Positions 360-13,704 of a stretch of DNA of 64,000 bases are shown piece by piece; position 1 is the stretch's first letter; the number at the start of each line of letters is the position of its first letter. A program made the translations under genes and the position numbers. The stretch is from Candidatus Aminicenantes bacterium. GTDB taxonomy: Bacteria; Acidobacteriota; Aminicenantia; S016-38. The notes below the pieces were generated by a model. That model did not search any database. It was not told where the DNA came from and was given only the letters and a program-made list of their open reading frames with translations. The stretch covers positions 524,162 through 588,161 of the forward strand of contig JAMOUJ010000005.1 in the NCBI GenBank assembly GCA_027068075.1, in the 5' to 3' direction.

Positions 360-560
360 ATGAAGTTGATGGAGAATCGCTACCTTTACACCCTTAAGGT
401 GGCCAAGAGGGCCCGTCAGATACTGGAGGGGGCCAAACCCCTTATAGAAACGAAGTTCAGAAATCCTATTAAAATAGCCCACGCGGAGTTTCAGACGGGG
501 AAACTTGACATATCGCTAATCGTTATAAATCCCCTGGAGGATTTTTCCTTTTATAAGTAA
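360..560 (+). CDS. rpoZ: DNA-directed RNA polymerase omega subunit
   Basis: MKLMENRYLYTLKVAKRARQILEGAKP matches the RpoZ signature (NRY/F..L.AKRARQ). GGAGGA lies 4 nt before ATG 360. An alternative GTG start is at 333. Confidence 0.8.
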   Translation: MKLMENRYLYTLKVAKRARQILEGAKPLIETKFRNPIKIAHAEFQTGKLDISLIVINPLEDFSFYK

Positions 561-1418
561 GGCCATTTTCAGGTTGAGGTTCTTTATCTCCTCGGCCAGA
601 TACTCCAGGGTGATGGGTATGTAATCCTTAAAATAAGTTTTTCCCTTCTTTATCTGGAATCCAAAGGTTCCCAGGGCCTTCAGATGTCTTTGAAGGGAAA
701 CCAGGATGTAGTTGGAGGAGTTGAGGTTTTTTTCTAACCTCCGCCTGAGGGTTGGAGTTAGTTTCACATAATTGTCCCGGAGGAGGGAGGCGTAATCGTA
801 TTCCGGGGGTCCCATCATGCAGTCCTGGTAGTCCAGGATTAAAATTTTACCGCCCTTGAGGAAAATGTTTCTGGAGTGAAAATCCCGGTGGTTGGGCACC
901 GCGGTGGAGTAATCTATGCTCTCCACCAGTTCCAGGGCGGCCTCCCGCCATTGTTCTTCCTCCACGGGGTATCTTTCCTCTATGAAGTGACGGAAGGTGA
1001 AGTCCAGTTCCTTCAAAAATCTTTCGCCGTTCAGGGCGCGCCTCCTCACCGGATGGTTCGCCGGAAACAGGCCGGGGCCGTAGTTTTGAAGGACCCTCAG
1101 GAAGTGAAGCAGTTTCCGGTATACGGAATCCACCTTCCGGTTTTTTCTCCAGGCTTCCTCCAGGCTGAGGTCCCCTGCATCCTCCATGAGGAGAGCCCGG
1201 GGAAAGATTTCGTATATTCTGGGCAGGGGCCATAGGGCCGAGAGGAAGCGATGAACCTGGAGTTGAAGGTCAAGACCCTCTCCGGTAAAGACCATTAACA
1301 CGAACCGTTCCCCCTTTTTTTCTACCCGGTAAAATTGACGGGAAGAAGCATCCCCCTGGAGTTTTTCCACCAGGCGAAAACCCCGTTTTTCAAGGAAGGG
1401 GATAAGTTTTTCCGTCAA
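516..1418 (-). CDS. Aminoglycoside-phosphotransferase-fold (APH/choline-kinase/AmgK-like) small-molecule kinase
   Basis: Catalytic HRDFHSRNIF (HxDxxxxN) and an ILDYQD Mg-binding Asp, typical of the APH/ChoK/MurNAc-kinase family. Confidence 0.7.
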   Translation of the reverse strand: MTEKLIPFLEKRGFRLVEKLQGDASSRQFYRVEKKGERFVLMVFTGEGLDLQLQVHRFLSALWPLPRIYEIFPRALLMEDAGDLSLEEAWRKNRKVDSVYRKLLHFLRVLQNYGPGLFPANHPVRRRALNGERFLKELDFTFRHFIEERYPVEEEQWREAALELVESIDYSTAVPNHRDFHSRNIFLKGGKILILDYQDCMMGPPEYDYASLLRDNYVKLTPTLRRRLEKNLNSSNYILVSLQRHLKALGTFGFQIKKGKTYFKDYIPITLEYLAEEIKNLNLKMALLIKGKILQGIYND

Positions 1419-2196
1419 CGAAAATCCCTCCTTTTAGAACCTTACCCGGGGGAACCGTTCCCCGAACCACCACGGAATTCACCACCGCGGCTCCCCTTTC
1501 TACCCTCCCGTCCCTCATTATTATGGAATTTTCCACCAGGGCCATGGGGTGGATCCGGGCTCCTGGTTCTGTCCATACCCCTTCTCCGTGGGCTTTGAAG
1601 TAGGAGGATGGGTTAGTAAATTCCAGGGCTTCCGCCTCCACCGCCCCCACCGGAAACCTTGCGGCAAAGTCCAGGATGAGGTTCCCTGAGGGGGGAAGGT
1701 TTTCCAGGGCTTCCGGGGAGATCACCATGGCACCGCAATAAAAATTTTTGCCCTCCCCTATTTTTAAGCGATTTCCTTCTATTTTCAGGGGAGTGTAGGG
1801 AGGTTTGTGGGGACAGAGGGCCAGGGTTATGGGGTAGGGGCTTGAGCGGTGGTGGTTTATGAGTTTTTCGTAGGGGCCCAGGAGAAGGGTATCGCCATTG
1901 TGGAGGAGAATTTCCTCCTGGATGTTGAAAAGGTTAAGGATTCGCCTGAGGCCCCCGCAGGTTCCGAGGAGGGTGCCCTCCAGGGAAAACCCGAAGTCCA
2001 GCCCCTGCAGGTCCCGCAGGATCTCCTGGGGAAGGTGATGTAGGTTCGCCACCAGTTTGGAGGCGTGGGGAAGGAGGCTTTCCGCGATTCTCCTTATAAT
2101 GGGCGTCCCCTTGAAGGGAAGGGAAGGTTTGGGCCTGGCGGAAGATATGGGAAGCATCCTTTCCCCCCGGCCCGCAGCCAGTACTACTCCCCACAT
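1390..2196 (-). CDS. Sugar-1-phosphate nucleotidyltransferase with a C-terminal left-handed beta-helix (hexapeptide) domain
   Basis: N-terminal GVVLAAGRGERMLP..KP nucleotidyltransferase motif (G-x-G-x-R). The C-terminus carries hexapeptide repeats (VENSIIMRDGRVERGAAVVNSVVVRG). It overlaps the downstream kinase by 29 nt. Confidence 0.75.
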   Translation of the reverse strand: MWGVVLAAGRGERMLPISSARPKPSLPFKGTPIIRRIAESLLPHASKLVANLHHLPQEILRDLQGLDFGFSLEGTLLGTCGGLRRILNLFNIQEEILLHNGDTLLLGPYEKLINHHRSSPYPITLALCPHKPPYTPLKIEGNRLKIGEGKNFYCGAMVISPEALENLPPSGNLILDFAARFPVGAVEAEALEFTNPSSYFKAHGEGVWTEPGARIHPMALVENSIIMRDGRVERGAAVVNSVVVRGTVPPGKVLKGGIFVDGKTYPLP

Positions 2197-2717
2197 GAAA
2201 ACCTGATCTCCTTCAAGCCCGCTTCCAGGGCCATTTCCACATAGGTCTTTTTGATGTAATGGGCAGGGGAAAATCCAAGGCTGCGGGCGATGCTTTCTAT
2301 TTCCTCTGGACTTCCTTCAATCTCAATGAAATTGCCCAGGGGGGTTCTGTCCAGGGAGATCATGGCCTTCCCCAGGCGATAGTTCTTCCTCTCCTTCTCG
2401 TAGTAAAAGGCCACGGAGAACCCCAGGCGTTTCAGGATATCCTCCATGGCCCGGGGATCGTCCACCTCGGTTTGTATTTCCTCCCTTACTTTGTGCTGGG
2501 GATCCCTTATGGGCCTCCCCTTGAAGGTCAGGGTGGTTCTGGGGGGGCATATTCTCAGCCTCAGGGCTTCCCCCCTTTTGAACAGGGTGTTTTCCCGGTC
2601 AAAGAGGTAATTTTTTTCAAAGCATCCCCCCAGGAAAACGGCCCCCAGTTTCCGCACCTTTCTTTCCTCTTCCTCCAGATCGTCCACCTTTATTTTTACT
2701 TCCCGTTCAAATCCCAT
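2184..2717 (-). CDS. CYTH-domain protein (class IV adenylyl cyclase / triphosphatase family)
   Basis: N-terminal EREVKIKV (ExExK) motif with an overall CyaB/ThTPase-like pattern. Length 177 aa. Confidence 0.6.
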   Translation of the reverse strand: MGFEREVKIKVDDLEEEERKVRKLGAVFLGGCFEKNYLFDRENTLFKRGEALRLRICPPRTTLTFKGRPIRDPQHKVREEIQTEVDDPRAMEDILKRLGFSVAFYYEKERKNYRLGKAMISLDRTPLGNFIEIEGSPEEIESIARSLGFSPAHYIKKTYVEMALEAGLKEIRFSCGE

Positions 2718-3654
2718 AGAGACGCCTCAGGTCTGAGTATTCTAAGATGGCTTCCCGCCAGGGAGATGGGGGAAACCTTTTGACCACGGTCCTGGCCTCC
2801 TCCAGGAAGTTTTCCATAACCGAGAGAGCCCTTTCCACGGCCCCGCTTTTTATCACATCGTCCCGGACGGCCTGGAAATCTATGGGTTCCCTGGTAAGGA
2901 AGAATCTCTTTATGTCCTGTGAAAACTTTCCCTCGCCCTCAAGGTAAAAGATGTAGGGGAGCGAGAGTTTTCCCTCCCGCAGGTCGGAAAGGGTGGGCTT
3001 TTTCAGTCTTTTTTTGTCAAGGACCACATCTGCCACATCGTCCAGGATCTGGAAGGCCAAGCCAAATTTTTCCCCGAAGTCCCTCAGTTCCTTCTCCAGG
3101 CTTTCGTCTCCCTTCAGCACCGCCGGCAGGGCTGAACTCAAGGCGAACAACCGGGCGGTTTTTCCGTCTATTATCCTGAAGTATTCATCCTGGCTGAGGT
3201 CAATCCTGTAAAGGTTGAGGCTTTCGTCCATTTCTCCGCTTATCATTCCCTCCACCTCCTCCGCCATGAGATCAATTATCCTCATCTTCCCGAACCTGGC
3301 GGCGATGGAAATGGCCTTGATGTAAAGGAGGTCTCCCAGAATGATGGCCTTGTCCACCCCGAAGACCATGTGGGCTGAAGCCAGGCCCCTTCTCTCCTCC
3401 GCTTCGTCTATGATGTCGTCGTGGAAAAGGGAGGCGGAGTGGATGAGTTCCACGGCCCCTCCCAGTTCTATCAGGGGTTCGTCCTGGCAACCCAGGATTT
3501 TCCCTATGGAAAACAGGAGCAGGGCTCTGACCCTTTTGCCGGATGAACGGGAAAGGTAGTCTATCTGCTCCGGGGGAAGGCCCTTTATTTCCCTGTAACT
3601 GGAGCGCAGGAAGTCCTCCACCCGCTCCCTGACCCTTTTCAAAAAAATCTTCAT
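2707..3654 (-). CDS. Polyprenyl diphosphate synthase (trans-isoprenyl diphosphate synthase family)
   Basis: Two Asp-rich motifs: LFHDDIIDEAEERRG (DDxxD) and FQILDDVADV. Confidence 0.9.
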   Translation of the reverse strand: MKIFLKRVRERVEDFLRSSYREIKGLPPEQIDYLSRSSGKRVRALLLFSIGKILGCQDEPLIELGGAVELIHSASLFHDDIIDEAEERRGLASAHMVFGVDKAIILGDLLYIKAISIAARFGKMRIIDLMAEEVEGMISGEMDESLNLYRIDLSQDEYFRIIDGKTARLFALSSALPAVLKGDESLEKELRDFGEKFGLAFQILDDVADVVLDKKRLKKPTLSDLREGKLSLPYIFYLEGEGKFSQDIKRFFLTREPIDFQAVRDDVIKSGAVERALSVMENFLEEARTVVKRFPPSPWREAILEYSDLRRLYGI

Positions 3655-3721
3655 AACTAATTTTTATCATAAACCAAGGGGGGATTTGCAAATCCTGTAT
3701 TTTTTTTCTAAGATAACTCCG

Positions 3722-5473
3722 ATGATAAAAAGAATAGAAAAATCCTCCATTACCAAGGAGGACCTGAAGAAGTATGTCCAGGAGATAAACCTCTCCCAGA
3801 GGGCCTTCCCGGTAAAGGAGCAGAGGGAAGCCATCGTGGCCCTTCTGAAGGCCTGGGACGAACTGGATGGGGAGCAGAAAATAGTTCTTCTTTCCGAAGA
3901 TTTTGGGGTGGAGTTCCCAAAATTGAAGGTTTACGGGGTGATTTCCCACGATTGGCCCGGGCTGGCCGATACCACCATGGGGCTTTTCCACGAGAAGGGG
4001 TGGAATGTTTACTTCATAAAGGCCTTCAGCATGGAGCACCGGGGGGAGGACCTGGGGGTTATCCTCATCGCCATACGGGTGGAGTCCCCGGAAAAAATGG
4101 AAAAACTCCGCCTGGACGAAGAGGACATTTTGCGGAACATTGAATATGTGATAACCGGTTCCCTCTCCAAGCAATCCCTCATCGCCGAGGAGATAAAGAA
4201 ACTGAAAATTTACGGGAAGATAGTGGAGGAGATAAAAAAGATCTATCAGGGACCTTATTTGAAGGAAATTATAGAGGAGGAGGCGGTGAAATTCGTATCC
4301 GCCCGTTCCAGGGAATACCTGGAGGAGAGGAGGATAGAGGACCTGGCCCGGATGGTGATAGATAACAGAATCCTGGCCACCAAGGTCCTGGAGGAGGACA
4401 AACCCCAGGTGAGGATAAGGGACCTTCCCACCAAGAGAGGGGTTTTCACCGCCATCACCGCCTTTGACAGGATGGAAGACCTTTCCATGGAGGACCTTAT
4501 AAGGATAATCTGGCACATATATCCCGACCACAGAATAATGTTCTACAAGGAGTACAAGCGGAAGGGCGTTACCGTAGCCCATGTGGAGGTGGTGGACGAG
4601 GGCGGTAACCCTCTTCCTCCGGGAATTAAAAAGAAGATAGAAGAGTTTCTCTCCAATCCCTTCCTGATAAAGCAAGCGCGCAGGGCCGGAAGGATCCAGA
4701 AAATAGGAGGTTTTGAACACTACGCCAGGGCCATAATCCCCGTCCTCGTCCGGGAGGCTCAAAATACGGGCCTGCCCCAGGTGTTCTTTTCCGTGGTGGG
4801 CTCCGACGAATTTCACATACACTTCAAACTGATAATAGTCAACAAAACCGAGGTCACCCACAGGATAATAGAGGAACTTCAGAAACTTAAGGGGGTGGAG
4901 ATCCGGGCGGCCAAGATACCTCGGGAGATGGGGAACTGGTTCCACACGGTGATTGACATAAGGGTGGCCCTGGAGTATTTCTCCTCGGTGGAAGAAATAT
5001 ACCATCGGTTGAAGAACACCCTGGAGAGGATAATCGGACGGTTCAGGGATTTTGACAAGGGGATGCGGGAGATGGAAAAGACTAAATTTCAGCACCTCTC
5101 CAGCACCCTCAAGGAAATTCCGGAGAAAATCCTCCGGGAGTTTTACTTCAACCTGGAGGATTTTTACAGGGTCGGGGCTTCCCATCAGGAACTGGAGAAA
5201 CTCATGAGGATGGGGTGGGAGTGTTACTCATCGGATTCCATCCCCTGTTTTAAGGTGGACAGGGTGAATTCCTCCCTGATCCTGGCCCTGAAGGTTCCTC
5301 CGGATCCCCGGATCCTTCCGGAACTGGCCGAAGCCTTTTACTCCTGTACCCCCATTATTTCCAGATCCGAGTTTGGGGAATGGGATATAATCTTCCTTTC
5401 ACTGAGGGAATGCGAGGATGAGGAGGAGGTGAGGAAGAAACTCCTTGCCCTGCTCCACAGAAAGGAACCTTAG
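3722..5473 (+). CDS. Hypothetical protein (584 aa from ATG 3722; ORF open from 3686) with about four repeated ACT-like (ligand-binding regulatory) units
   Basis: Thermophile-like K/E-rich composition, and it fills the otherwise empty interval. Repeated ~55-aa beta-alpha-beta-like segments occur (VYGVISHDWPGLADTTMGLF..., RGVFTAITAFDRMEDLSMEDLIRII..., VFFSVVGSDEFHIHFKLIIV..., SLILALKVPPDPRILPELAEAFY...). The antisense 637-aa ORF (3272..5185) is P/G/H-rich and was rejected. Confidence 0.55.
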   Translation: MIKRIEKSSITKEDLKKYVQEINLSQRAFPVKEQREAIVALLKAWDELDGEQKIVLLSEDFGVEFPKLKVYGVISHDWPGLADTTMGLFHEKGWNVYFIKAFSMEHRGEDLGVILIAIRVESPEKMEKLRLDEEDILRNIEYVITGSLSKQSLIAEEIKKLKIYGKIVEEIKKIYQGPYLKEIIEEEAVKFVSARSREYLEERRIEDLARMVIDNRILATKVLEEDKPQVRIRDLPTKRGVFTAITAFDRMEDLSMEDLIRIIWHIYPDHRIMFYKEYKRKGVTVAHVEVVDEGGNPLPPGIKKKIEEFLSNPFLIKQARRAGRIQKIGGFEHYARAIIPVLVREAQNTGLPQVFFSVVGSDEFHIHFKLIIVNKTEVTHRIIEELQKLKGVEIRAAKIPREMGNWFHTVIDIRVALEYFSSVEEIYHRLKNTLERIIGRFRDFDKGMREMEKTKFQHLSSTLKEIPEKILREFYFNLEDFYRVGASHQELEKLMRMGWECYSSDSIPCFKVDRVNSSLILALKVPPDPRILPELAEAFYSCTPIISRSEFGEWDIIFLSLRECEDEEEVRKKLLALLHRKEP

Positions 5474-5484
5474 TTTGGTTGGTC

Positions 5485-5493
5485 TGTTATAAT
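5485..5493 (+). promoter_or_regulatory. Extended -10 element (TGtTATAAT) upstream of rpmE
   Basis: tgttataat sits 27 nt before the AAGGAGG ribosome-binding site and ATG 5520. Confidence 0.5.
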
Positions 5494-5519
5494 ATTTCGG
5501 TAATACAAAGGAGGAGAGG

Positions 5520-5732
5520 ATGAAGAAAGGGATACATCCAGAATACTACGAATGCGTGGTCACCTGCGCCTGCGGAAATACCTTCGTTACCCGTTCCACC
5601 AAGAAGGAAATCCATGTGGAAGTATGCAATCTATGCCATCCCTTCTTTACCGGAAAACAGAAGATCCTGGATTCCTCCGGTAGGGTTGAGAAGTTCCGCA
5701 GGAAATACGGTGACAACTATGTTAAAAGGTGA
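5520..5732 (+). CDS. rpmE: 50S ribosomal protein L31 (zinc-ribbon type)
   Basis: [10 protein letters not shown]...CACGN...[13 protein letters not shown]. Confidence 0.95.
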
Positions 5733-6802
5733 TGTTTGAGCACCTCCAGGGCCTTGAAGAGAAATTTGAGTCCTTGGAGAGGCAACTTTCAGATCCCGAA
5801 GTCATAAAGGACCCTGCGAGGTTTCGCAGACTCGCCAAGGAAAGGGCAGAACTTCAGCCCATAGTAGATAAATTCCGGGAATACAAAAAGGTTCTTCAGC
5901 AGATAAGGGAAGCCCGGGAGATATTGAAGGAGGGAGACAAAGAACTCCGGGAACTGGCGGAGGAAGAACTGAAAACCCTAAGCGCCAGAAGGGAAGATTT
6001 GGAAAAGGAACTGAAGTTTCTCCTCCTTCCCAAGGACCCCAACGATGCCCGAAATGTTCTCCTGGAGATAAGGGCCGGAGCCGGAGGGGAGGAAGCGGCC
6101 CTTTTCGTGGGGGACCTTTTTCGCATGTATTCCAGATATGCGGAGAGGAAGGGATGGAAGGTGGAGGTTTTGAATTCCCACCCGTCTTCCCTGGGGGGGT
6201 TCAAGGAAATAATTCTTCTCATAAAGGGTCGGGGAGCCTACAGCCGGTTTAAGTTTGAAAGCGGAGTTCATCGGGTTCAGAGGATTCCAGTGACGGAAAC
6301 CGGCGGAAGGATACACACCTCCACCGCCACCGTGGCGGTGCTTCCCGAGGCGGACGACATAGACATAAAAATAGACCCCAAGGACCTGAGGATAGAGGCC
6401 TTCGGAGCCTCTGGCCCCGGGGGGCAGAATGTGAACAGGAACTATACCGCCATAAGAGTTACCCATCTGCCCACGGGCATGGTGGTCTCCTGCCAGGACG
6501 AGAAATCCCAGCACCGGAACAAGGAAAAGGCCCTTAAGATCCTGCGGGCCCGTCTATACGAAATGGAGAGGAAAAAGCAACAGGAGAGCATATCCAGGGA
6601 AAGACGGGCTCAGGTGGGAACGGGGGAGAGGAGCGAAAAGATAAGAACCTATAATTTCCCCCAGAACCGGGTCTCCGACCACAGGATCAACTACACCACC
6701 CACAACCTGGAGGCCGTTCTGGACGGGGAACTGGACGAAATCATAGATAGGTTAATAGCCCACCATCAGGCGGAACGCCTCCGGGAAAGGCAACTGGCGT
6801 GA
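5729..6802 (+). CDS. prfA: Peptide chain release factor 1
   Basis: [20 protein letters not shown] (GGQ motif) and a PxT-type tripeptide region. The ATGA overlap with rpmE indicates translational coupling. Confidence 0.95.
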
Positions 6803-7584
6803 AGGATAAAGACGCTCTCATCTGGGCCAGAAGAAAACTTCTGGAGCGGGTGGAGAACCCTGACCTGGAGGCAGAGGTCCTTCTGAGGTCTCTGCTGGGA
6901 ATTTCCCGGGAGGAACTGTGGACCCGGGATCACGAAGTCTCAGAAGAGAAATTGAAGGAGGTGGTGGAACTCCGGGCGGAGCACTATCCCCTTCAATACA
7001 TAACCGGAGAGGTGGAGTTTTTCTCCAGGAAATTTTTAATGAGGGAAGGGGTTTTTATTCCCAGACCGGAGACCGAAGGGCTGGTGGAGGTGGCCCTGGA
7101 GGTTTTGGAGCCGGGTCAGAGGGTGGTGGAGGTGGGTGTTGGTAGCGGGATCGTCAGTATTACCCTGGCCCTGGAAAGGCCTGGACTCCGTTTATACGCC
7201 GACGACATAAACCCCCTGGCCGTGGACCTGGCCCGGGAAAACGCCCGGCGTCTGGGAACTCGGGTTTCCCTGTTGCTTGGGGATGCCCTTCTGCCCTTTC
7301 AAAGGAAGTTCCATGCCGTGGTGAGCAATCCTCCCTATGTAGCCCCCGGGGAGGAAGTTTCCCCGGAACTCAAATACGAGCCCCGGGAGGCCTACCTTGC
7401 GCCCCCCGATGGGCTTTCCTTTATAAGGCGTCTCCTGGAGCAGGCCCGGGAGGTTCTCCTTCCAGGAGGAAAGGTAGTGGTGGAAATTTCCCCATCCCAG
7501 GGCCCGTTCCTCAGGAAAAATTACGGTGCCAGAATTTTTAAAGACCTCTCCGGAAGGGATAGGGTGGCTTTAATTGTCCTTTGA
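6799..7584 (+). CDS. prmC: Release-factor glutamine N5-methyltransferase
   Basis: NPPYV motif, a GVGSG AdoMet-binding loop, and the position right after prfA. Confidence 0.9.
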
Positions 7585-7635
7585 AATTTTATATAATAGA
7601 AACCCTTTAAAAAGCAAAAGCACTGGAGGTAAGGG

Positions 7636-9837
7636 ATGAACTTTAATTATCTCTTTGTTCTGGCACCCATAGCCGCTGTTCTGGCTTTAGTTTTTGCCTA
7701 CATTTTCTACAGGCAGATTATGAAGGTGGAAGAGGGTACGGAAAAGATGAAGGAAATAGCCCAGGCGGTGAGGGTAGGGGCCAAAGCCTACCTGAGGAGA
7801 CAGTATACGGTGGTGGCCATTTTCTTCGTGGTCACCAGCCTTTTTCTGGTGTTTCTCTCCTTTGTGCTGAAGGTTCAGTCCCGATGGACGGCCTTTGCCT
7901 TCCTCACCGGTGGATTTTTCTCCGCCCTGTCCGGATACCTGGGCATGATGGCCGCCACCAACGCCTCGGCGAGGACCGCCCATTCCGCCCGTCAGTCCCT
8001 GAACTCTGCCCTCCGGGTGGCCTTTCGGGCTGGAGCCATCATGGGCCTCGTGGTGGTGGGTCTGGGCTTGATAGACATCTCCATATGGTTTACCGTGTTG
8101 CACTACCTGGTGGGATACGACCTGAGGCTTACCACCGTTACCCTCCTCTCCTTCGGGATGGGAGCCTCCCTTCAGGCCCTTTTCGCCAGGGTGGGAGGGG
8201 GAATTTACACCAAGGCCGCCGATGTGGGCGCTGACCTGGTGGGAAAGGTGGAAGCCGGAATCCCCGAGGATGACCCCAGAAACCCCGCAGTTATTGCGGA
8301 TAATGTGGGGGATAATGTGGGGGATGTGGCCGGTATGGGCGCCGACCTTTACGAAAGTTATACCGGTTCTATCCTTTCCTCCGCAGCCCTGGGGGCTTCG
8401 GCCTTTTACGCATCCAAATACGCCTTGAATGCCGTCATCCTCCCCATGGTGGTGGCGGCGGTGGGAATGGTGGCCTCCATCCTGGGGATCTTCCTGGTAA
8501 AGGCCCGGGAGGACGCCTCCCAGAAGAACCTTCTTAACGCCCTCAACAGGGGAATTTACGGAGCCTCCCTTCTCATAGTGGTAGCCACATATTTCGTAAT
8601 AAAAGCCTTGCTGCCCAACCACATGGGACTGTTTGGGTCCGTGGTGACCGGACTGATGGTGGGGCTCATCATAGGGAAATCCACCGAATACTACACCAGT
8701 TCTTCCTATTCCCCCACCCGGTTTATCGCCTCCCAATCCCTGACGGGGCCTGCCACCACCATTTTGAGCGGGCTGTCGGTGGGGATGCTTTCTACGGCCA
8801 TCCCGGTCCTGGCGGTGGCCTTCGGCATAATAGTGGCCTTCTGGGCCGCCGGGGGATTTTCCAAGCCGATTCTGGGCCTTTACGGGATAGGAATTGCGGC
8901 GGTAGGTATGCTTTCCACCCTGGGAATTACCCTGGCCACCGACGCCTACGGGCCCGTGGCCGATAACGCCGGGGGCAACGCCCAGATGGCAGAACTTCCC
9001 GAGGAGGTGAGGCGCAGAACCGATGCCCTGGACGCCCTGGGAAACACCACCGCTGCCACGGGTAAGGGGTTTGCCATAGGTTCCGCCGCCCTGACCGCCC
9101 TGGCCCTTCTTGCTGCCTACATAGAGGAAGTCAGGGGTGGGCTGATAAGATTGGTAAACAACGGCTGGTCCTTTCCGGACATTGCCCGGGTGGTGGGCTC
9201 CAGCGAGGCCAAGGCCCTCCTTGACTGGTTACATCATGCTACCATTGCTGATTTTATGAGACTCTTCGCAGTGAACCTGATGAACCCTAAGGTTATCGTG
9301 GGAATATTCTTGGGGGCTATGATGCCCTTCTTCTTCTCCGGCCTGGCCATAAAGGCCGTGGGTAAGGCGGCCTCAGAGATGGTGGAGGAGGTCCGGCGCC
9401 AGTTCAGGGAGATAAAGGGTCTCCTGGAAGGGAAGGCCAAACCCGATTACGCCACCTGCGTGGAGATATCCACCCGGGAGGCTCAAAAGGCCATGGTGTT
9501 GCCTGCCCTTTCGGCGGTGCTGGCCCCCATATTCACAGGGCTCATATTCGGGGTTTCCGGAGTCATGGGGCTGCTTATAGGCGCCCTCAGTTCCGGATTC
9601 ATCCTGGCCATATTTATGGCCAATGCCGGAGGAGCCTGGGATAACGCCAAGAAATTTATAGAGGAAGGCAATTACGGCGGAAAGGGCTCGGAACCCCACA
9701 AGGCGGGGGTGGTGGGGGACACCGTGGGAGATCCGCTGAAGGATACCGCCGGTCCTTCCCTCAACATACTTATAAAACTAATGAGCATGGTTTCCGTGGT
9801 GGTGGCTGGCCTGGTGGTGGCCTACCACCTCTTGTGA
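7636..9837 (+). CDS. hppA: Membrane-bound proton/sodium-translocating pyrophosphatase, K+-dependent subtype
   Basis: 733 aa and polytopic. Conserved [20 protein letters not shown] and DNVGDNVGD motifs. The GNTTAA signature (A rather than K) indicates a K+-dependent enzyme. Confidence 0.95.
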
Positions 9838-9881
9838 TATAATAGGGCAGGAAACCTACAAAACCTATAAGGAGGTTGAAG

Positions 9882-10145
9882 ATGGCCCTTATGATAACCG
9901 AAGAATGCATTAATTGCGGAGCCTGCGAACCTGAATGCCCCAACGAGGCTATTTATCAGGGAGCGGAAATATTTGAAATTGATCCGGAAAAGTGCACCGA
10001 GTGCGTGGGCTTTTACGACGAACCCCAGTGTATAGCCGTTTGTCCCGTGGACTGCATAGTCCCCAATCCTAACTACCAGGAAACCAAGGAACAACTCCTG
10101 GAAAAATTCAAGAAACTTCATCCTGACAAGGAGCCCGTTCTTTAA
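9882..10145 (+). CDS. 2x[4Fe-4S] ferredoxin
   Basis: CINCGACEPECP and CTECVGFYDEPQCIAVCP motifs. GGAGG lies 6 nt upstream of ATG 9882. An extended -10 (TGATATAAT, 9835-9843) overlaps the hppA stop. Confidence 0.9.
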   Translation: MALMITEECINCGACEPECPNEAIYQGAEIFEIDPEKCTECVGFYDEPQCIAVCPVDCIVPNPNYQETKEQLLEKFKKLHPDKEPVL

Positions 10146-10167
10146 AGCATAGAGAAAAAAGGAGGGA

Positions 10168-10192
10168 GGGGGGAGTAATCCCCCCTTTGTTC
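10168..10192 (+). terminator. GC hairpin (GGGGGG-agtaat-CCCCCC) followed by TTTGTT, between the ferredoxin gene and apbC
   Basis: A perfect 6-bp G/C stem with a 6-nt loop and a short T-rich tail, read directly from the sequence. A role as a partial terminator or attenuator is inference. Confidence 0.3.
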
Positions 10193-10198
10193 GCTGAA

Positions 10199-11281
10199 AT
10201 GGAAGATAAAATAAGGGAAGTATTGAAGACTATTCAGTTCCCTGGCTACAGCAGGGACATAGTTTCCTTTGGAATGGTCAAGGGGATAAGGGTAAGGGAC
10301 GGGGAGGTGGAGATAGACCTCCACATAAACACCAAGAACCAGGAAGCCGCCGAACAGGTCAAGAGGGAAGTGGAGGAGAAGGTTTCTTCCCTGGAAGGGG
10401 TTTCCCGGGTTAAGGTTAACCTTACCACCCTTTCCCAGAAGGAACCTCCTAAGCCTAAAGCCCATGTTTCCACCAAATCCAGCCCCTTCGCCGGCCAGCA
10501 AAGGATTGAGGGAGTGAAGTGCGTGGTGGCCGTGGGGTCCGGGAAGGGGGGTGTGGGAAAGACCACCGTGGCGGTTAACCTGGCCCTGGCCCTGGCCAAG
10601 AAGGGATACAGCGTGGGAATAATGGATGCCGATGTTTACGGTCCCAATGTCCCCACCATGATGGGGATAGAAGGGGCCGTGCCCCGGGTGACCGAGGACA
10701 ACAAGATAATCCCGGTGGAAGTGGGCGGCATAAAGGTTATAAGCATAGGTTTCTTCGTGGAGAAGGACCAGCCCGTCATATGGAGAGGTCCCCTGGTTTC
10801 TAAACTTATAGAGCAGTTCCTCAGGGATGTGATGTGGGCTCCCCTGGACATTCTCATCGTGGACCTTCCTCCGGGCACCGGGGATGTCCAACTTTCCCTG
10901 GTTCAAAAGGTCCCCGTGGACGGAGGAATTGTGGTGACAACCCCCCAGGAACTGGCCCTCCAGGATGCCCGCAAGGCCGCAAAGATGTTTGAGGAAGTGG
11001 GGGTTCCGGTCATAGGAATAATTGAAAACATGAGTTATCTCGTTTGTCCCCATTGCGGAGCCCGGATAGACCTGTTTCCCCATGCAGGGGCGAAAAAGGC
11101 CGCCCAGGATATGAATACCAAATATCTCGGGGAGATTCCCTTTGAGCCCCGGGCGGCGGAGGGATCGGATTCCGGAAAGCCGGTGGTTCTATACTATCCC
11201 GATTCCCCCCAGACCAAAGCCTTTCTGGAACTGGCGGATGTGGTGGTGAGGGAAACCAACTGTATTGAGCCGGTTCAGTAA
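10199..11281 (+). CDS. apbC: Fe-S cluster carrier ATPase Mrp/ApbC/NBP35 with an N-terminal DUF59 (MIP18-like) domain
   Basis: Walker A in ParA/Mrp form (VAVGSGKGGVGKTT) and a CPHC pair. ATG at 10199, alternative TTG at 10187. Confidence 0.9.
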   Translation: MEDKIREVLKTIQFPGYSRDIVSFGMVKGIRVRDGEVEIDLHINTKNQEAAEQVKREVEEKVSSLEGVSRVKVNLTTLSQKEPPKPKAHVSTKSSPFAGQQRIEGVKCVVAVGSGKGGVGKTTVAVNLALALAKKGYSVGIMDADVYGPNVPTMMGIEGAVPRVTEDNKIIPVEVGGIKVISIGFFVEKDQPVIWRGPLVSKLIEQFLRDVMWAPLDILIVDLPPGTGDVQLSLVQKVPVDGGIVVTTPQELALQDARKAAKMFEEVGVPVIGIIENMSYLVCPHCGARIDLFPHAGAKKAAQDMNTKYLGEIPFEPRAAEGSDSGKPVVLYYPDSPQTKAFLELADVVVRETNCIEPVQ

Positions 11282-12137
11282 GTTTCCCTGGCTTAATGTT
11301 CTTCTCTTTCTCTTAACCCTTTTTACCACCCTTGCCTGGGGTGCCCTTCACTGGATGGGGTTTTACCATCCCGAGGCTTCCCCCCGGGAGATGCTGGAAG
11401 CCTTTAAAACCCTGCGCTTTTTAAAGATGGGGGCGCCCTTTTCCTTTTCCCTGCTTTTTATTCTCCTGTCCCACGAAATGGGCCATTACCTGGCGGCAAG
11501 GCATTACGGAGTGGATACCACCCTGCCCTACTTCATCCCTGCCCCTAATCTCCTGGGAACCTTCGGTGCAGTTATAAGGATAAAATCCCCGGTTCCATCC
11601 CGGAGGGCCCTCTTTGACATAGGGATAGCAGGGCCTTTAGCGGGTTTTTTCGTTACCCTCCCCTTTTTGCTCTACGGGCTCTCAAAGGCCTTGGTGCTCA
11701 AATCTCCTCCCACGGGGGGAATTTTTCTGGGAGATCCTCTCCTCTTGAAAATCTTATACCGCTTTTATTTTCCGGGGGTTTCTCCGGAGACTGTGGTGAT
11801 TCATCCCGTGGGTCTGGCGGCCTGGGTGGGACTTTTCGTAACCTCCCTTAACCTTCTTCCGGTGGGTCAACTGGACGGGGGTCACATAGCCTATGCAGCC
11901 CTGGGAAGGGAGGCCGACAAACTATCCCTGGCCCTCTTCGCCTTTCTTCTCTACCTGGGAATTTTCAAGTGGGCCGGATGGCTAATCTGGGATCTTCTAC
12001 TGATTTTTCTGGGGATCCGCCATCCCCATTTCCCCTATCCGGACCGACTGGATTTCCGCCGAAAACTTCTGGCCCTGATTGCCCTCGTGGTTTTTCTACT
12101 GACCTTCATTCCGGTTCCCATCAGTTTCAAGGGCTAA
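11265..12137 (+). CDS. M50-family (site-2 protease-like) membrane metalloprotease
   Basis: HEMGHYLAARHYGV (HExxH) inside a polytopic membrane protein with a downstream LDGG motif. Confidence 0.8.
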   Translation: MSRFSKFPWLNVLLFLLTLFTTLAWGALHWMGFYHPEASPREMLEAFKTLRFLKMGAPFSFSLLFILLSHEMGHYLAARHYGVDTTLPYFIPAPNLLGTFGAVIRIKSPVPSRRALFDIGIAGPLAGFFVTLPFLLYGLSKALVLKSPPTGGIFLGDPLLLKILYRFYFPGVSPETVVIHPVGLAAWVGLFVTSLNLLPVGQLDGGHIAYAALGREADKLSLALFAFLLYLGIFKWAGWLIWDLLLIFLGIRHPHFPYPDRLDFRRKLLALIALVVFLLTFIPVPISFKG

Positions 12138-12550
12138 GTTTTGGCCTCCAGGAATTTTCCCCGGGCCTCGGCCAGAATCTTTTCCCCGGACATGAGTCTG
12201 GAACCCGTGTAATATAAATTCCTTCTTTTTTCTTCCACCCATCCTTCCACGGTGTAGGGAACGGCGGGGGAAGTTTTCCTTCTGAACCTCACCGTAATCT
12301 CCACGGTGAAGGCCACCACCCCCTGAAAGAGGAGGGCCTTGGCCATGGCCTCGTCCAGAACCGTGGTCACGATCCCACCGTGTATTATTCCAGGGTATCC
12401 CACATAGTTCTCGTGGAAGACTACCTCTGCCCGAACCAGTTCCCCTTCCTTTTTAAAACTTAATTTCAGGCCCCAGGGATTTTCCTTCCCGCAGGCGAAA
12501 CAGCCCTGCCAATTCAGCCAAGAACTTTCCTGACTTTTTCCATTGCCCAA
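12134..12550 (-). CDS. Hotdog-fold thioesterase (PaaI/YbgC-like)
   Basis: Hotdog core region (GYPGIIHGGIVTTVLDEAMAKALLFQG). Its stop overlaps the convergent M50 gene by 4 nt. Confidence 0.7.
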   Translation of the reverse strand: MGNGKSQESSWLNWQGCFACGKENPWGLKLSFKKEGELVRAEVVFHENYVGYPGIIHGGIVTTVLDEAMAKALLFQGVVAFTVEITVRFRRKTSPAVPYTVEGWVEEKRRNLYYTGSRLMSGEKILAEARGKFLEAKT

Positions 12551-13704
12551 TCTATCTCCTCCTTGGTTATGACCAGAGGTGGGGCGAAGCGGAGAACATA
12601 TTCGTGGGTTTCCTTGCAGAGGAGCCCTTCTTCCATGAGTTTTTCCGCATATTCCCTGGCGGGTTTTTTCAATTCCACTCCGATCAAAAGCCCTCTTCCC
12701 CTGACCTCCACTATATTCGGATTGGAGATGGTTCTAAGACGGTCCATGAAGTATTCTCCCATCCGGGCGGCCCTGCGGGGAAGATCCTCCTCCACTATGA
12801 CATCCAGGGCTGCTATTCCCACGGCGGCTCCCAGCGGGTTTCCCCCGAAGGTGGAACCGTGATCCCCGGGCTTGAAGACGCCCAGGATTTCCCGGGATGA
12901 GGCGAAGGCGGATACGGGAAGAATGCCTCCGCTCAGGGCTTTGCCCAGGATGATCCCGTCGGGCTTTACCCCTTCCCATTCCCAGGCGAACATCTTTCCG
13001 GTTCTGCCGAGACCCGTCTGAACCTCATCCAGGATCAGGAGAACATTGTGTTTTCTGGTTATTTCCCTCACTTTTTTCAAATACCCTTCCGGAGGTATTA
13101 TTATCCCCCCTTCCCCCTGAATGGGCTCCAGAAGGACCGCTACGGTGTTTTCGGTGATGGCCTCCTCTATGGCCCGGGCGTCGCCGTAGGGAACCATTTT
13201 AAATCCCGGGGTAAAGGGAGAAAACCCATCCCTGTATTGGGGTTCCGAGGAAAAGGAGATGATGGTGATGGTTCTTCCGTGGAAGTTCCCTTCGGCGGCT
13301 ATTATTTCTGCCCTGTCCTTTTCCACCCCCTTTACATAATAGCCCCACTTTCTAACGGCCTTCAGGGCAGTTTCTACCGCCTCTGCCCCGGAATTCATGG
13401 GAAGAACCATTTCCATGCCTGTAATCTCAGCCACCTTTTTCAGAAAGAGTGGAAGTTGGTCGTTGTAAAAGGCCCTGGAGGTAAGGGTTAATTTGTCCAG
13501 TTGTTTTTTTGCCGCCTCCACTATTCTGGGATGCCGATGTCCCTGGTTCAGGGCGGAATAGGCTGAAAGCATGTCCATGTACTTTTTGCCCTCTACATCC
13601 CAGACCCATACCCCCTCCCCCCTTTCAATCACTATGGGGAGGGGAAGGTAGTTGTGGGCGCCGTAGGTGGCGTCCATTTCCATTAATATCTGAGTTCTGT
13701 TCAT
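12514..13704 (-). CDS. rocD: Ornithine aminotransferase (class III PLP aminotransferase)
   Basis: YGAHNYLPLPIVIERGEGVWVWDVEGKKYMDMLSAYSALNQGHRHPRIVEAA closely matches the OAT N-terminus. A PLP-lysine region is present. Confidence 0.85.
   Translation of the reverse strand: MNRTQILMEMDATYGAHNYLPLPIVIERGEGVWVWDVEGKKYMDMLSAYSALNQGHRHPRIVEAAKKQLDKLTLTSRAFYNDQLPLFLKKVAEITGMEMVLPMNSGAEAVETALKAVRKWGYYVKGVEKDRAEIIAAEGNFHGRTITIISFSSEPQYRDGFSPFTPGFKMVPYGDARAIEEAITENTVAVLLEPIQGEGGIIIPPEGYLKKVREITRKHNVLLILDEVQTGLGRTGKMFAWEWEGVKPDGIILGKALSGGILPVSAFASSREILGVFKPGDHGSTFGGNPLGAAVGIAALDVIVEEDLPRRAARMGEYFMDRLRTISNPNIVEVRGRGLLIGVELKKPAREYAEKLMEEGLLCKETHEYVLRFAPPLVITKEEIDWAMEKVRKVLG

Follow-up and report, generated by a model that had tools for sequence, protein, structure and literature searches.

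Introduction

ACT domains are classic allosteric modules of amino-acid metabolism, and nearly all characterised ones are fused to the enzyme that they control. It is already known that such modules are sometimes supplied in trans. The gene reported here lies at positions 3686..5473 (+ strand) of a 64,000-nucleotide (nt) stretch of DNA, referred to as the window, from a Candidatus Aminicenantes bacterium (assembly GCA_027068075.1, contig JAMOUJ010000005.1, positions 524,162 to 588,161). The predicted protein displays four ACT-like units in one chain. It is read here, with a modest lean in favor, as a trans-acting sensor or regulatory subunit built of these four units.

The closest described regulatory modules are those of the aspartokinases. 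All classes, I-III, have a regulatory unit of four ACT domains (PMC4142519). In class I the unit is formed 2+2 via dimerisation, and in class II the alpha subunit contributes two domains and a separate beta subunit the other two, such that a separate polypeptide supplies part of the regulatory unit. The class III enzyme of Synechocystis carries all four ACT domains in one chain (PMC4142519).

A second group of relevant domains shows a permuted order of secondary structure elements, ββαββα, in which β1 replaces the canonical β4 and the strands of the sheet are ordered β1β2β4β3 (PMC10175843; bioRxiv 10.1101/2020.11.14.381715). This is the topology of the "ACT-like" domains in GlnD, plant ACR proteins and plant bHLH factors (PMC10175843). 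It is also the topology of the "ACT*" domains of the large glutamate dehydrogenase L-GDH180, and the variation has been described for aspartate kinases as well (bioRxiv 10.1101/2020.11.14.381715). In GlnD/ACR-type ACT-like domains a putative ligand-binding motif, DRPGLL, is located in the β2-α1 loop (PMC10175843).

A conserved family without annotation

The protein sequence gives no significant match in Pfam, NCBIfam, PDB sequences, PADLOC or PHROGs; the PDB sequence library was searched both with the single sequence and with a profile of 58 sequences. HxxEH, HExxH and Walker A motifs are absent from the protein, and no nucleotide-binding or metal-binding motifs were found in it. The few weak library matches are to ACT-like folds only. 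The Pfam model ACT_AHAS_ss matches residues 77-128 with an E-value of 0.057 (14 bits against a cut-off of 27) and appears at E ≤ 0.1 in only 4 of the 58 family members. The NCBIfam model YbeD/DUF493 matches residues 367-433 with E = 0.012. Residues are numbered here and below according to the translation of 3719-5470 (P1, M2).

A word-indexed search showed 100 homologues of 570-640 amino acids (aa), with E ≤ 1e-42. Every one of them is annotated as hypothetical and lacks any Pfam domain. When 1.84 billion representative sequences were searched exhaustively with an HMMER profile, only 178 proteins, a small family, reached E ≤ 1e-3, and 93 of these E ≤ 1e-30. Among species-representative genomes the family is found mainly in Candidatus Aminicenantes, with further members in KSB1, Caldithrix, Zixibacteria, TA06, WOR-3, Cloacimonadota, Fermentibacteria and Omnitrophota. 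The closest relative of the window protein, 90% identical, is in an Aminicenantes metagenome-assembled genome. The family is conserved and unannotated, with neither a Pfam nor an NCBIfam model. No transmembrane-like segment is present in the protein, and the isoelectric point (pI) ranges from 5.1 to 9.6 over the family with no charge bias; the protein is thus predicted to be soluble and cytoplasmic.

The alignment used throughout consists of 58 sequences with 25-35% pairwise identity to the query. Despite this low identity, 26 columns are invariant, and the invariant set includes D78, W79, G81, H91 and N96; P80 is conserved in at least 90% of the sequences. Of the 54 columns that show ≥90% conservation, 35 fall in three helical motifs (HM1-HM3, described below), and the DWPG loop is also highly conserved.

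Predicted architecture of the protein

An AlphaFold2 (AF2) model was computed from the 58-sequence alignment, with secondary structure assigned by DSSP. The domains are confident but their mutual arrangement is not established, because the mean predicted local distance difference test score (pLDDT) is 87 yet the predicted TM-score (pTM) is 0.46. The model shows four ββαββα (E-E-H-E-E-H) units of ~70-95 aa, an N-terminal helical pair and three helical motifs. All coordinates that follow are on the + strand.

The N-terminal helix pair (residues 13-47, 3755..3859) is poorly conserved, with a mean column conservation of 0.39. ACT-like unit 1 (residues 55-146, 3881..4156) has the ββαββα order with pLDDT of ~85-94. 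It carries the sequence D-W-P-G-L (residues 78-82, 3950..3964) in its β2-α1 loop, a candidate ligand-binding loop. HM1 (residues 149-226, 4163..4396) is helical in the model and has 13 columns that are ≥90% conserved; it contains the block E-A-x-K-F-x-S-A-R-S-R-E-Y-L-E-E-R (residues 188-204, 4280-4330), where E188, R196, Y200 and R204 are invariant. Unit 2 (residues 230-312, 4406..4654), again ββαββα, has invariant T238, T244 and E290. Unit 3 (residues 354-439, 4778..5035) is modeled as ββαβ(β)βα with Q354 and K370 invariant. Unit 4 (residues 510-580, 5246..5458) returns to ββαββα and is the least conserved, with no column reaching 90% and a mean of 0.33.

Between units 2 and 3 lies HM2 (residues 314-350, 4658..4768). 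Here the stretch G-G-F-E-H-Y-A-R-A-I-I-P (residues 330-341, 4706..4741) has invariant G330, G331, E333, R337, A338, I339, I340 and P341. This stretch, GGFEHYARAIIP, is the best-conserved block in the family and coincides with the weakest internal confidence of the model (pLDDT 53-72, residues 311-340). Because peak conservation meets the lowest pLDDT, this block may not be a plain helix, and the model suggests a functional loop or interface that a monomer prediction cannot place. HM3 (residues 440-504, 5036..5230) separates units 3 and 4. It opens with G-x-F-R-D-F-D-x-G-M-R-E (residues 440-451, 5036-5071), in which D444, F445 and R450 are invariant, and it also contains E-D-F-Y-R (residues 480-484). 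G440, R443, D446, G448, Y483 and R484 are conserved at ≥90%.

A Foldseek search of the PDB with the AF2 model gave as the top match the 180-kDa glutamate dehydrogenase of M. smegmatis (7jsr), with E = 6e-10 and probability 1.0 over ~650 columns. Further matches are GcvR (1u8s), 2nyi, the ACT domains of SerB2, the ACT-like domain of GL3, and the regulatory subunits of aspartate kinase. The last include the class II beta subunits of C. glutamicum and Thermus (2dt9, 2zho) and the class III enzyme of Synechocystis (3l76).

Comparison with the ACT-like domains of GlnD and ACR

A GlnD ACT profile was built from E. coli GlnD and 36 homologues and is shallow and mostly gammaproteobacterial. In profile-profile comparison by hhalign, unit 2 is the most similar to GlnD ACT1, with a probability of 89.5% and E = 2e-6 over 69 columns. 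The alignment is in register across β2-α1-β3-β4-α2 and includes the signature T-x-DG...V-D-x-x-G-x-PL. Unit 1 shows a weak match to ACT1 and ACT2 (10-13%, E = 2-3e-3, 31-44 columns), in register at D-x-P-G-L, and unit 4 matches ACT2 with 20%, E = 1e-3 and 71 columns. As controls, the N-terminus and HM1-HM3 all remained below 0.5%, and GlnD ACT1 against ACT2 gave 96.6%. With the full-length profile the unit 2 alignment reaches back into HM1 (residues 186-318 against GlnD 656-781; E = 7e-4, 26%); at these values the likeness of HM1 to the GlnD helix that precedes the ACT domains is suggestive only.

The DWPGL sequence of unit 1 occupies the same loop as the GlnD/ACR motif, between the strand at 68-77 and the helix at 82-92, and is in register with DRPYL/DQPGLL of GlnD. 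A DRPGLL-type loop motif is absent from units 2-4. Thus the ACT-like assignment appears firm at the level of the predicted fold. At the sequence level it is supported for unit 2, by profile, and for unit 1, by motif, and is unsupported for unit 3.

The window protein shares with GlnD and ACR the permuted ββαββα topology and, in unit 1, D-x-P-G-L in the β2-α1 loop, and both it and the plant ACR proteins are tandem arrays of about four ACT-like domains without a catalytic domain. Unlike GlnD, it has no nucleotidyltransferase or HD domains. It also differs from GlnD/ACR in that the DRPGLL-like loop is kept in just one of four units, that the units are separated by three long, highly conserved helical motifs of ~60-100 aa each, and that the sequence lies below the Pfam ACT threshold. 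The phyletic range is another, consisting of Aminicenantes and FCB-type candidate phyla, with a sister family in Chlamydiae.

An earlier note on this DNA, made without database searches, had described about four repeated β-α-β units of ~55 aa. Four units are indeed seen in the predicted structure, but they are larger (~70-95 aa) and invisible in the sequence. The internal repeats, for which the note had proposed a self-dot-plot, were not found in the sequence: self-BLAST gave no similarity between units, and hhalign among the four units gave probabilities that are all below 25% and no better than those of linker controls. Since neither sequence nor profile comparison relates the units to one another, the repeat is structural only. 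The likeness to GlnD and ACR-type proteins that the note proposed is upheld by the topology, by the position of DWPGL and by the unit 2 match. Its statement that the protein has no recognisable catalytic motif agrees with the negative family and motif searches. The note had named a confident enzyme-family hit, or a model without ACT-like folds, as grounds for dropping its proposal; no such hit was found, and ACT-like folds are present.

Comparison with L-GDH180 and double-ACT proteins

The N-terminal segment of L-GDH180 (7JSR, 7A1D) displays ACT* domains that alternate with helical motifs. The window protein shows the same alternation and superimposes on this segment. The differences are considerable. 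The window protein has no GDH catalytic domain, C-terminal domain or PAS domain and ends after unit 4. L-GDH180 has three ACT* units, with the PAS domain situated between ACT*2 and ACT*3, whereas the window protein has four units. No Bac_GDH or GDH Pfam match was found, and no PAS-like five-stranded unit is present in the AF2 model. Among the models GDH_ACT1, GDH_ACT2, GDH_ACT3 and GDH_HM, only GDH_ACT1 gave a match, in 1 of the 58 members (E = 0.0056). 7jsr is absent at E ≤ 10 from the profile search of PDB sequences.

Stand-alone double-ACT proteins (GcvR-like 1u8s, Galdieria 2nyi, and 1zpv) are recurrent fold matches and, as with the window protein, are non-catalytic and consist of ACT domains only. 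They contain two classical βαββαβ domains in ~170 aa and have no conserved helical motifs, whereas in the window protein four permuted units are spread over ~583 aa.

A chlamydial sister family encoded next to an aspartate kinase

The distant tier of the profile search, at E-values from 1e-9 to 1e-5, consists of chlamydial proteins from Rhabdochlamydiaceae, Parachlamydiaceae and Waddliaceae. These form a sister family of at least 529 clusters with a length of ~655 aa, which are without exception labelled hypothetical and lack Pfam matches. An hhalign comparison of the two family alignments gives a probability of 97.8% and E = 7.8e-13 over 504 co-linear columns with 17% identity. Three motifs are common to both families: E-x-x-x-R, found in HM2, P-Q-V-x-I-S, found at β1 of unit 3, and R-D-F-x-G-G-M, found in HM3. 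An independent AF2 model of the sister family (pLDDT 81) shows four ββαββα units and helical linkers as in the window protein. In a Foldseek search with this model the L-GDH180 chains are again at the top in probability (0.72-0.92), with E-values of 4e-3 to 1.5e-2. This model also shows a dip in confidence at residues 375-380, comparable to that of the HM2 region of the window protein.

In 69 of 75 informative chlamydial loci (92%) the immediate upstream neighbor of the sister gene is a same-strand gene of 255-296 aa. In the 59 loci that meet strict criteria the median gap between the two genes is 25 nt; the gap is 15 nt or less in 29 of these, and there are several overlaps of -1, -4 and -8 nt. 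An example is L092 (of the chlamydial loci L090-L172), where the two genes occupy 4213-4998 and 5001-6944. The upstream gene is the sole dominant neighbor, and the outer flanks are variable.

The upstream gene aligns with positions 1-245 of ~407 of the NCBIfam aspartate-kinase models at E-values of 1e-79 to 1e-83, below the full-length cut-offs, and with residues 1-299 of 449 of E. coli LysC. Pfam shows the AA_kinase domain alone. The KFGG sequence is kept in all kinase sequences inspected, as KFGGAS, KFGGSS, KFGGAA or KFGGST. Judged by these alignments, the upstream gene is an aspartate-kinase catalytic domain without the regulatory ACT pair. No account of a kinase paired with a four-ACT-like protein was found in the searchable literature, and this conserved two-gene operon of environmental Chlamydiae looks like an undescribed "split" aspartokinase.

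Distant chlamydial paralogues (P0226, P0230, P0239 and P0242) carry a C-terminal SBP_bac_5 domain of the OppA/DppA type and show no obvious N-terminal signal peptide. In one locus (L174), the gene of an SBP_bac_5 paralogue at 5001-8420 lies behind a MatE transporter gene, with which it has 4 nt in common, and no kinase gene adjoins it. The module thus occurs in three settings: coupled to a kinase, fused to a solute-binding domain, and as a stand-alone protein.

Proposed function and alternative explanations

Taken alone, the claim that the window protein is a non-catalytic, ACT-type regulatory protein is probably correct. Because the chlamydial relatives share an operon with a kinase that has lost its sensor domains, it is probably a detachable regulatory subunit. 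The reading as a whole, a trans-acting sensor or regulatory subunit with four ACT-like units, is somewhat favored. Sensing of an amino acid or a nucleotide, suggested in the earlier note, may be its role, and the sister-family operon with its ACT-less kinase adds indirect support. In the proposed mechanism a small ligand, probably an amino acid, would bind where ACT domains meet, and the foremost candidate for the effector site is the invariant DWPGL loop of unit 1. The conserved helical motifs would then relay the ligand-induced change to an enzyme that the protein regulates in trans.

Among candidates for this partner enzyme aspartokinase comes first, because a four-ACT unit is present in every known class and because the sister gene lies behind an ACT-less kinase; as the partner of the window's own family it is nevertheless a doubtful choice. 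The likeness to aspartokinase regulatory modules consists in the four ACT-type domains, which are predicted in the window protein. The differences are that a single protein of 580-650 aa with long helical inserts would supply all four domains in trans, and that the window-family gene is unlinked to any kinase, linkage being found only in the sister family. Tentatively, the two families may represent a fourth design of regulated aspartokinase, consisting of a bare catalytic subunit and a separate four-ACT protein that acts in trans. In Aminicenantes and the FCB-type phyla the regulator gene would then be unlinked and would still control aspartokinase, or would have been recruited to another ACT-less enzyme. 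With such a design docking could be the task of the helical motifs, and the effector could bind at the DWPGL loop.

Several results weigh against the regulatory reading or its aspartokinase version. No unit reaches the gathering threshold of Pfam ACT (PF01842) or related models, unit 3 has no hhalign match to the GlnD ACT profile, and no unit shows similarity to the ACT region of E. coli LysC, a comparison of low power with a single-sequence template. The uncertain arrangement of the domains in the model, noted above, counts on the same side. The strongest conservation in the alignment lies in the helical motifs and not in the ACT-like units, which is unusual for a pure ligand sensor. The L-GDH180 likeness is architectural and only partly reproducible, since the E-values of the sister model are weak. 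A tblastn search at E ≤ 1e-3 detected no aspartokinase-like gene in the 64-kb window or in 88 related loci (925 kb), and clustering of open reading frames in 88 loci showed no universal neighbor of the family gene. The SBP_bac_5-fused paralogue without an adjoining kinase indicates that the module is not exclusive to aspartokinase. With ~17% identity between the families and DWPGL specific to the window family, transfer of function from one to the other is risky.

The concentration of conservation in the helical motifs keeps alive the idea of a new kind of enzyme, in which invariant residues of the motifs would make up the catalytic center, with the ACT-like units in a regulatory or oligomerising role. 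Polar and charged residues account for most of the 26 invariant columns, which cluster in the helical motifs (among them E188, R196, Y200, R204, E333, R337, D444 and R450), and the best-conserved block falls in the least confident internal region of the model, perhaps as a functional loop. This idea is unlikely, as no catalytic family was matched in Pfam, NCBIfam, PDB sequences or the fold search, there are no nucleotide- or metal-binding motifs, the linkers are predicted to be all-helical, and the enzyme of the sister-family operon is a separate protein. A scaffold or oligomerisation protein that senses nothing would have a parallel in the plant bHLH ACT-like domains, which dimerise without a known ligand; it is a rather unlikely explanation, given that the invariant D-W-P-G loop is not easily accounted for unless it serves a ligand or some specific contact and that an operon with an aspartokinase that lost its allosteric domains points to regulation.

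Two further alternatives bear on the location of the gene and on the fold. The adjacency to rpmE, prfA and prmC raises the thought of a translation-associated or RNA-binding factor co-expressed with these genes, with its ferredoxin-like domains as RNA-binding modules. This is very unlikely: the adjacency is gone at 54% identity and is not seen in the remainder of the family, the pI range of 5.1-9.6 shows no basic bias, and the signatures are of the GlnD ACT-like type. An inactive relative of the M16 (pitrilysin/insulin-degrading enzyme) clamshell peptidases was considered since these also have four α/β modules, and IDE, PqqL, FusC, pitrilysin and falcilysin appear in both Foldseek searches over ~620-820 alignment columns. 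The Foldseek probabilities of these matches are 0.06-0.72, mostly ≤0.44 and in a single case 0.72, with the window model and ≤0.14 with the sister model, and TM-scores are ≤0.13. HxxEH is absent from the window protein, and HxxEH or HExxH is found in only 2 of the 58 members. The units of ~70-95 aa compare with LuxS/MPP-like modules of ~220 aa, and no M16 family was found at E ≤ 10 in Pfam or NCBIfam with the window protein or at E ≤ 0.1 in Pfam with the members. With poor fold scores, no zinc motif and the wrong module size, the M16 pseudo-peptidase is rejected as essentially refuted.

The gene, its reading frame and its neighbors

The open reading frame, including the stop codon, has exactly the position given in the earlier note (3686-5473), and its coding strand is now shown. 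The length of 584 aa given there is off by one: the product has 595 aa if translation starts at TTG 3686 and 583 aa if it starts at ATG 3722. A GGGGGG run sits only 2-3 nt 5′ of TTG 3686. ATG 3722 has no obvious Shine-Dalgarno sequence, yet it is the usual start position in most family members. The start codon is thus ambiguous, and the N-terminus is unconserved whichever start is used.

An antisense open reading frame of 637 aa is found at 3272..5185 (- strand). Its product is rich in P, G, L and H and has no Pfam or other family match. In every relative this frame breaks to 300 aa or less. In a comparison of the window gene with five relatives, substitutions lie mostly at the third codon position of the + frame; against one of them, the 90%-identical relative (L013), they number 62, 29 and 233 at codon positions 1, 2 and 3. 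Because third-position substitutions dominate and the antisense frame decays, the + strand gene is taken as real and under purifying selection, and the antisense frame is rejected as a gene. The antisense frame is a shadow open reading frame that is longer than the true gene, and a naive longest-frame caller would pick the shadow.

The gene is situated, as the earlier note stated, between isoprenoid and translation genes. On the upstream side a polyprenyl synthase gene is found at 2707..3654 (-), followed on the same strand by genes for a CYTH-domain protein (2184-2717), an NTP-transferase (1390-2196) and an APH-family kinase (516-1418). The gene ends in this block (516..3654) overlap or abut. 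The APH kinase and nucleotidyltransferase pair at 516-2196 presumably resembles AmgK/MurU-type sugar-1-phosphate recycling enzymes. On the downstream side are rpmE (5520..5732, +) and prfA (5729..6802, +), with prmC next on the + strand. rpmE begins 46 nt downstream of the gene, and no terminator-like site is present between the two, so that co-transcription is possible; this says little on function. The whole 64-kb window gave no Rfam match at the gathering threshold, be it to a tRNA, an rRNA, a riboswitch or any further curated RNA.

Conservation of the neighborhood, which the earlier note had proposed to examine at rpmE/prfA and at the polyprenyl synthase gene, holds for close relatives but not for the rest of the family. 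The rpmE/prfA adjacency is present in ~7 close relatives. In a 54%-identical relative (L005) the divergent block of polyprenyl synthase, CYTH, NTP-transferase and APH genes is kept and rpmE-prfA is lost. Relatives at 30-40% identity have different neighbors. The most common adjoining genes upstream are those for HU (15 of 76, divergent) and a Tag-like DNA-3-methyladenine glycosylase (10). Downstream they are UvrB (11, same strand) and RadA (9, convergent). Recurrence of these four genes in subsets of Aminicenantes (L009-L088) is best read as clade-level synteny. At least two apparent neighbor arrangements are seen among these loci, both related to DNA metabolism.

A search of 13 diverse loci with Rfam for an upstream riboswitch or leader RNA, as a clue to the ligand, gave tRNAs only. 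In Fermentibacteria (L004) two tRNA genes, at 5668-5741 (-) and 7852-7925 (+), bracket the family gene, and in an Acidobacteriota locus (L038) a tRNA gene at 7540-7612 (+) is apparently close downstream of it. L005 also carries, at 7776-13326 (-), downstream of and convergent to the family gene, a hybrid sensor kinase gene (HAMP-PAS-HATPase-REC) and two SBP_bac_5 genes, which recalls the SBP_bac_5 fusions of Chlamydiae. SBP_bac_5 was rejected as a recurrent neighbor; it is seen in L005 only of the 88 loci.

Significance

As far as searched, this family is undescribed, and so are its helical motifs and phyletic distribution and, in the sister family, the split-aspartokinase operon. Together they offer a testable hypothesis, namely that a detachable four-ACT protein controls the first step in the lysine/diaminopimelate/threonine pathway. 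In Chlamydiae this pathway feeds peptidoglycan synthesis. If the hypothesis is true, it would add a new class to the aspartokinase architectures and give a function to two orphan families. It would also provide a stand-alone model for the still ligand-less ACT* regions of the large glutamate dehydrogenases. Should the Aminicenantes protein act on some other enzyme, such regulators would be exchangeable between pathways.

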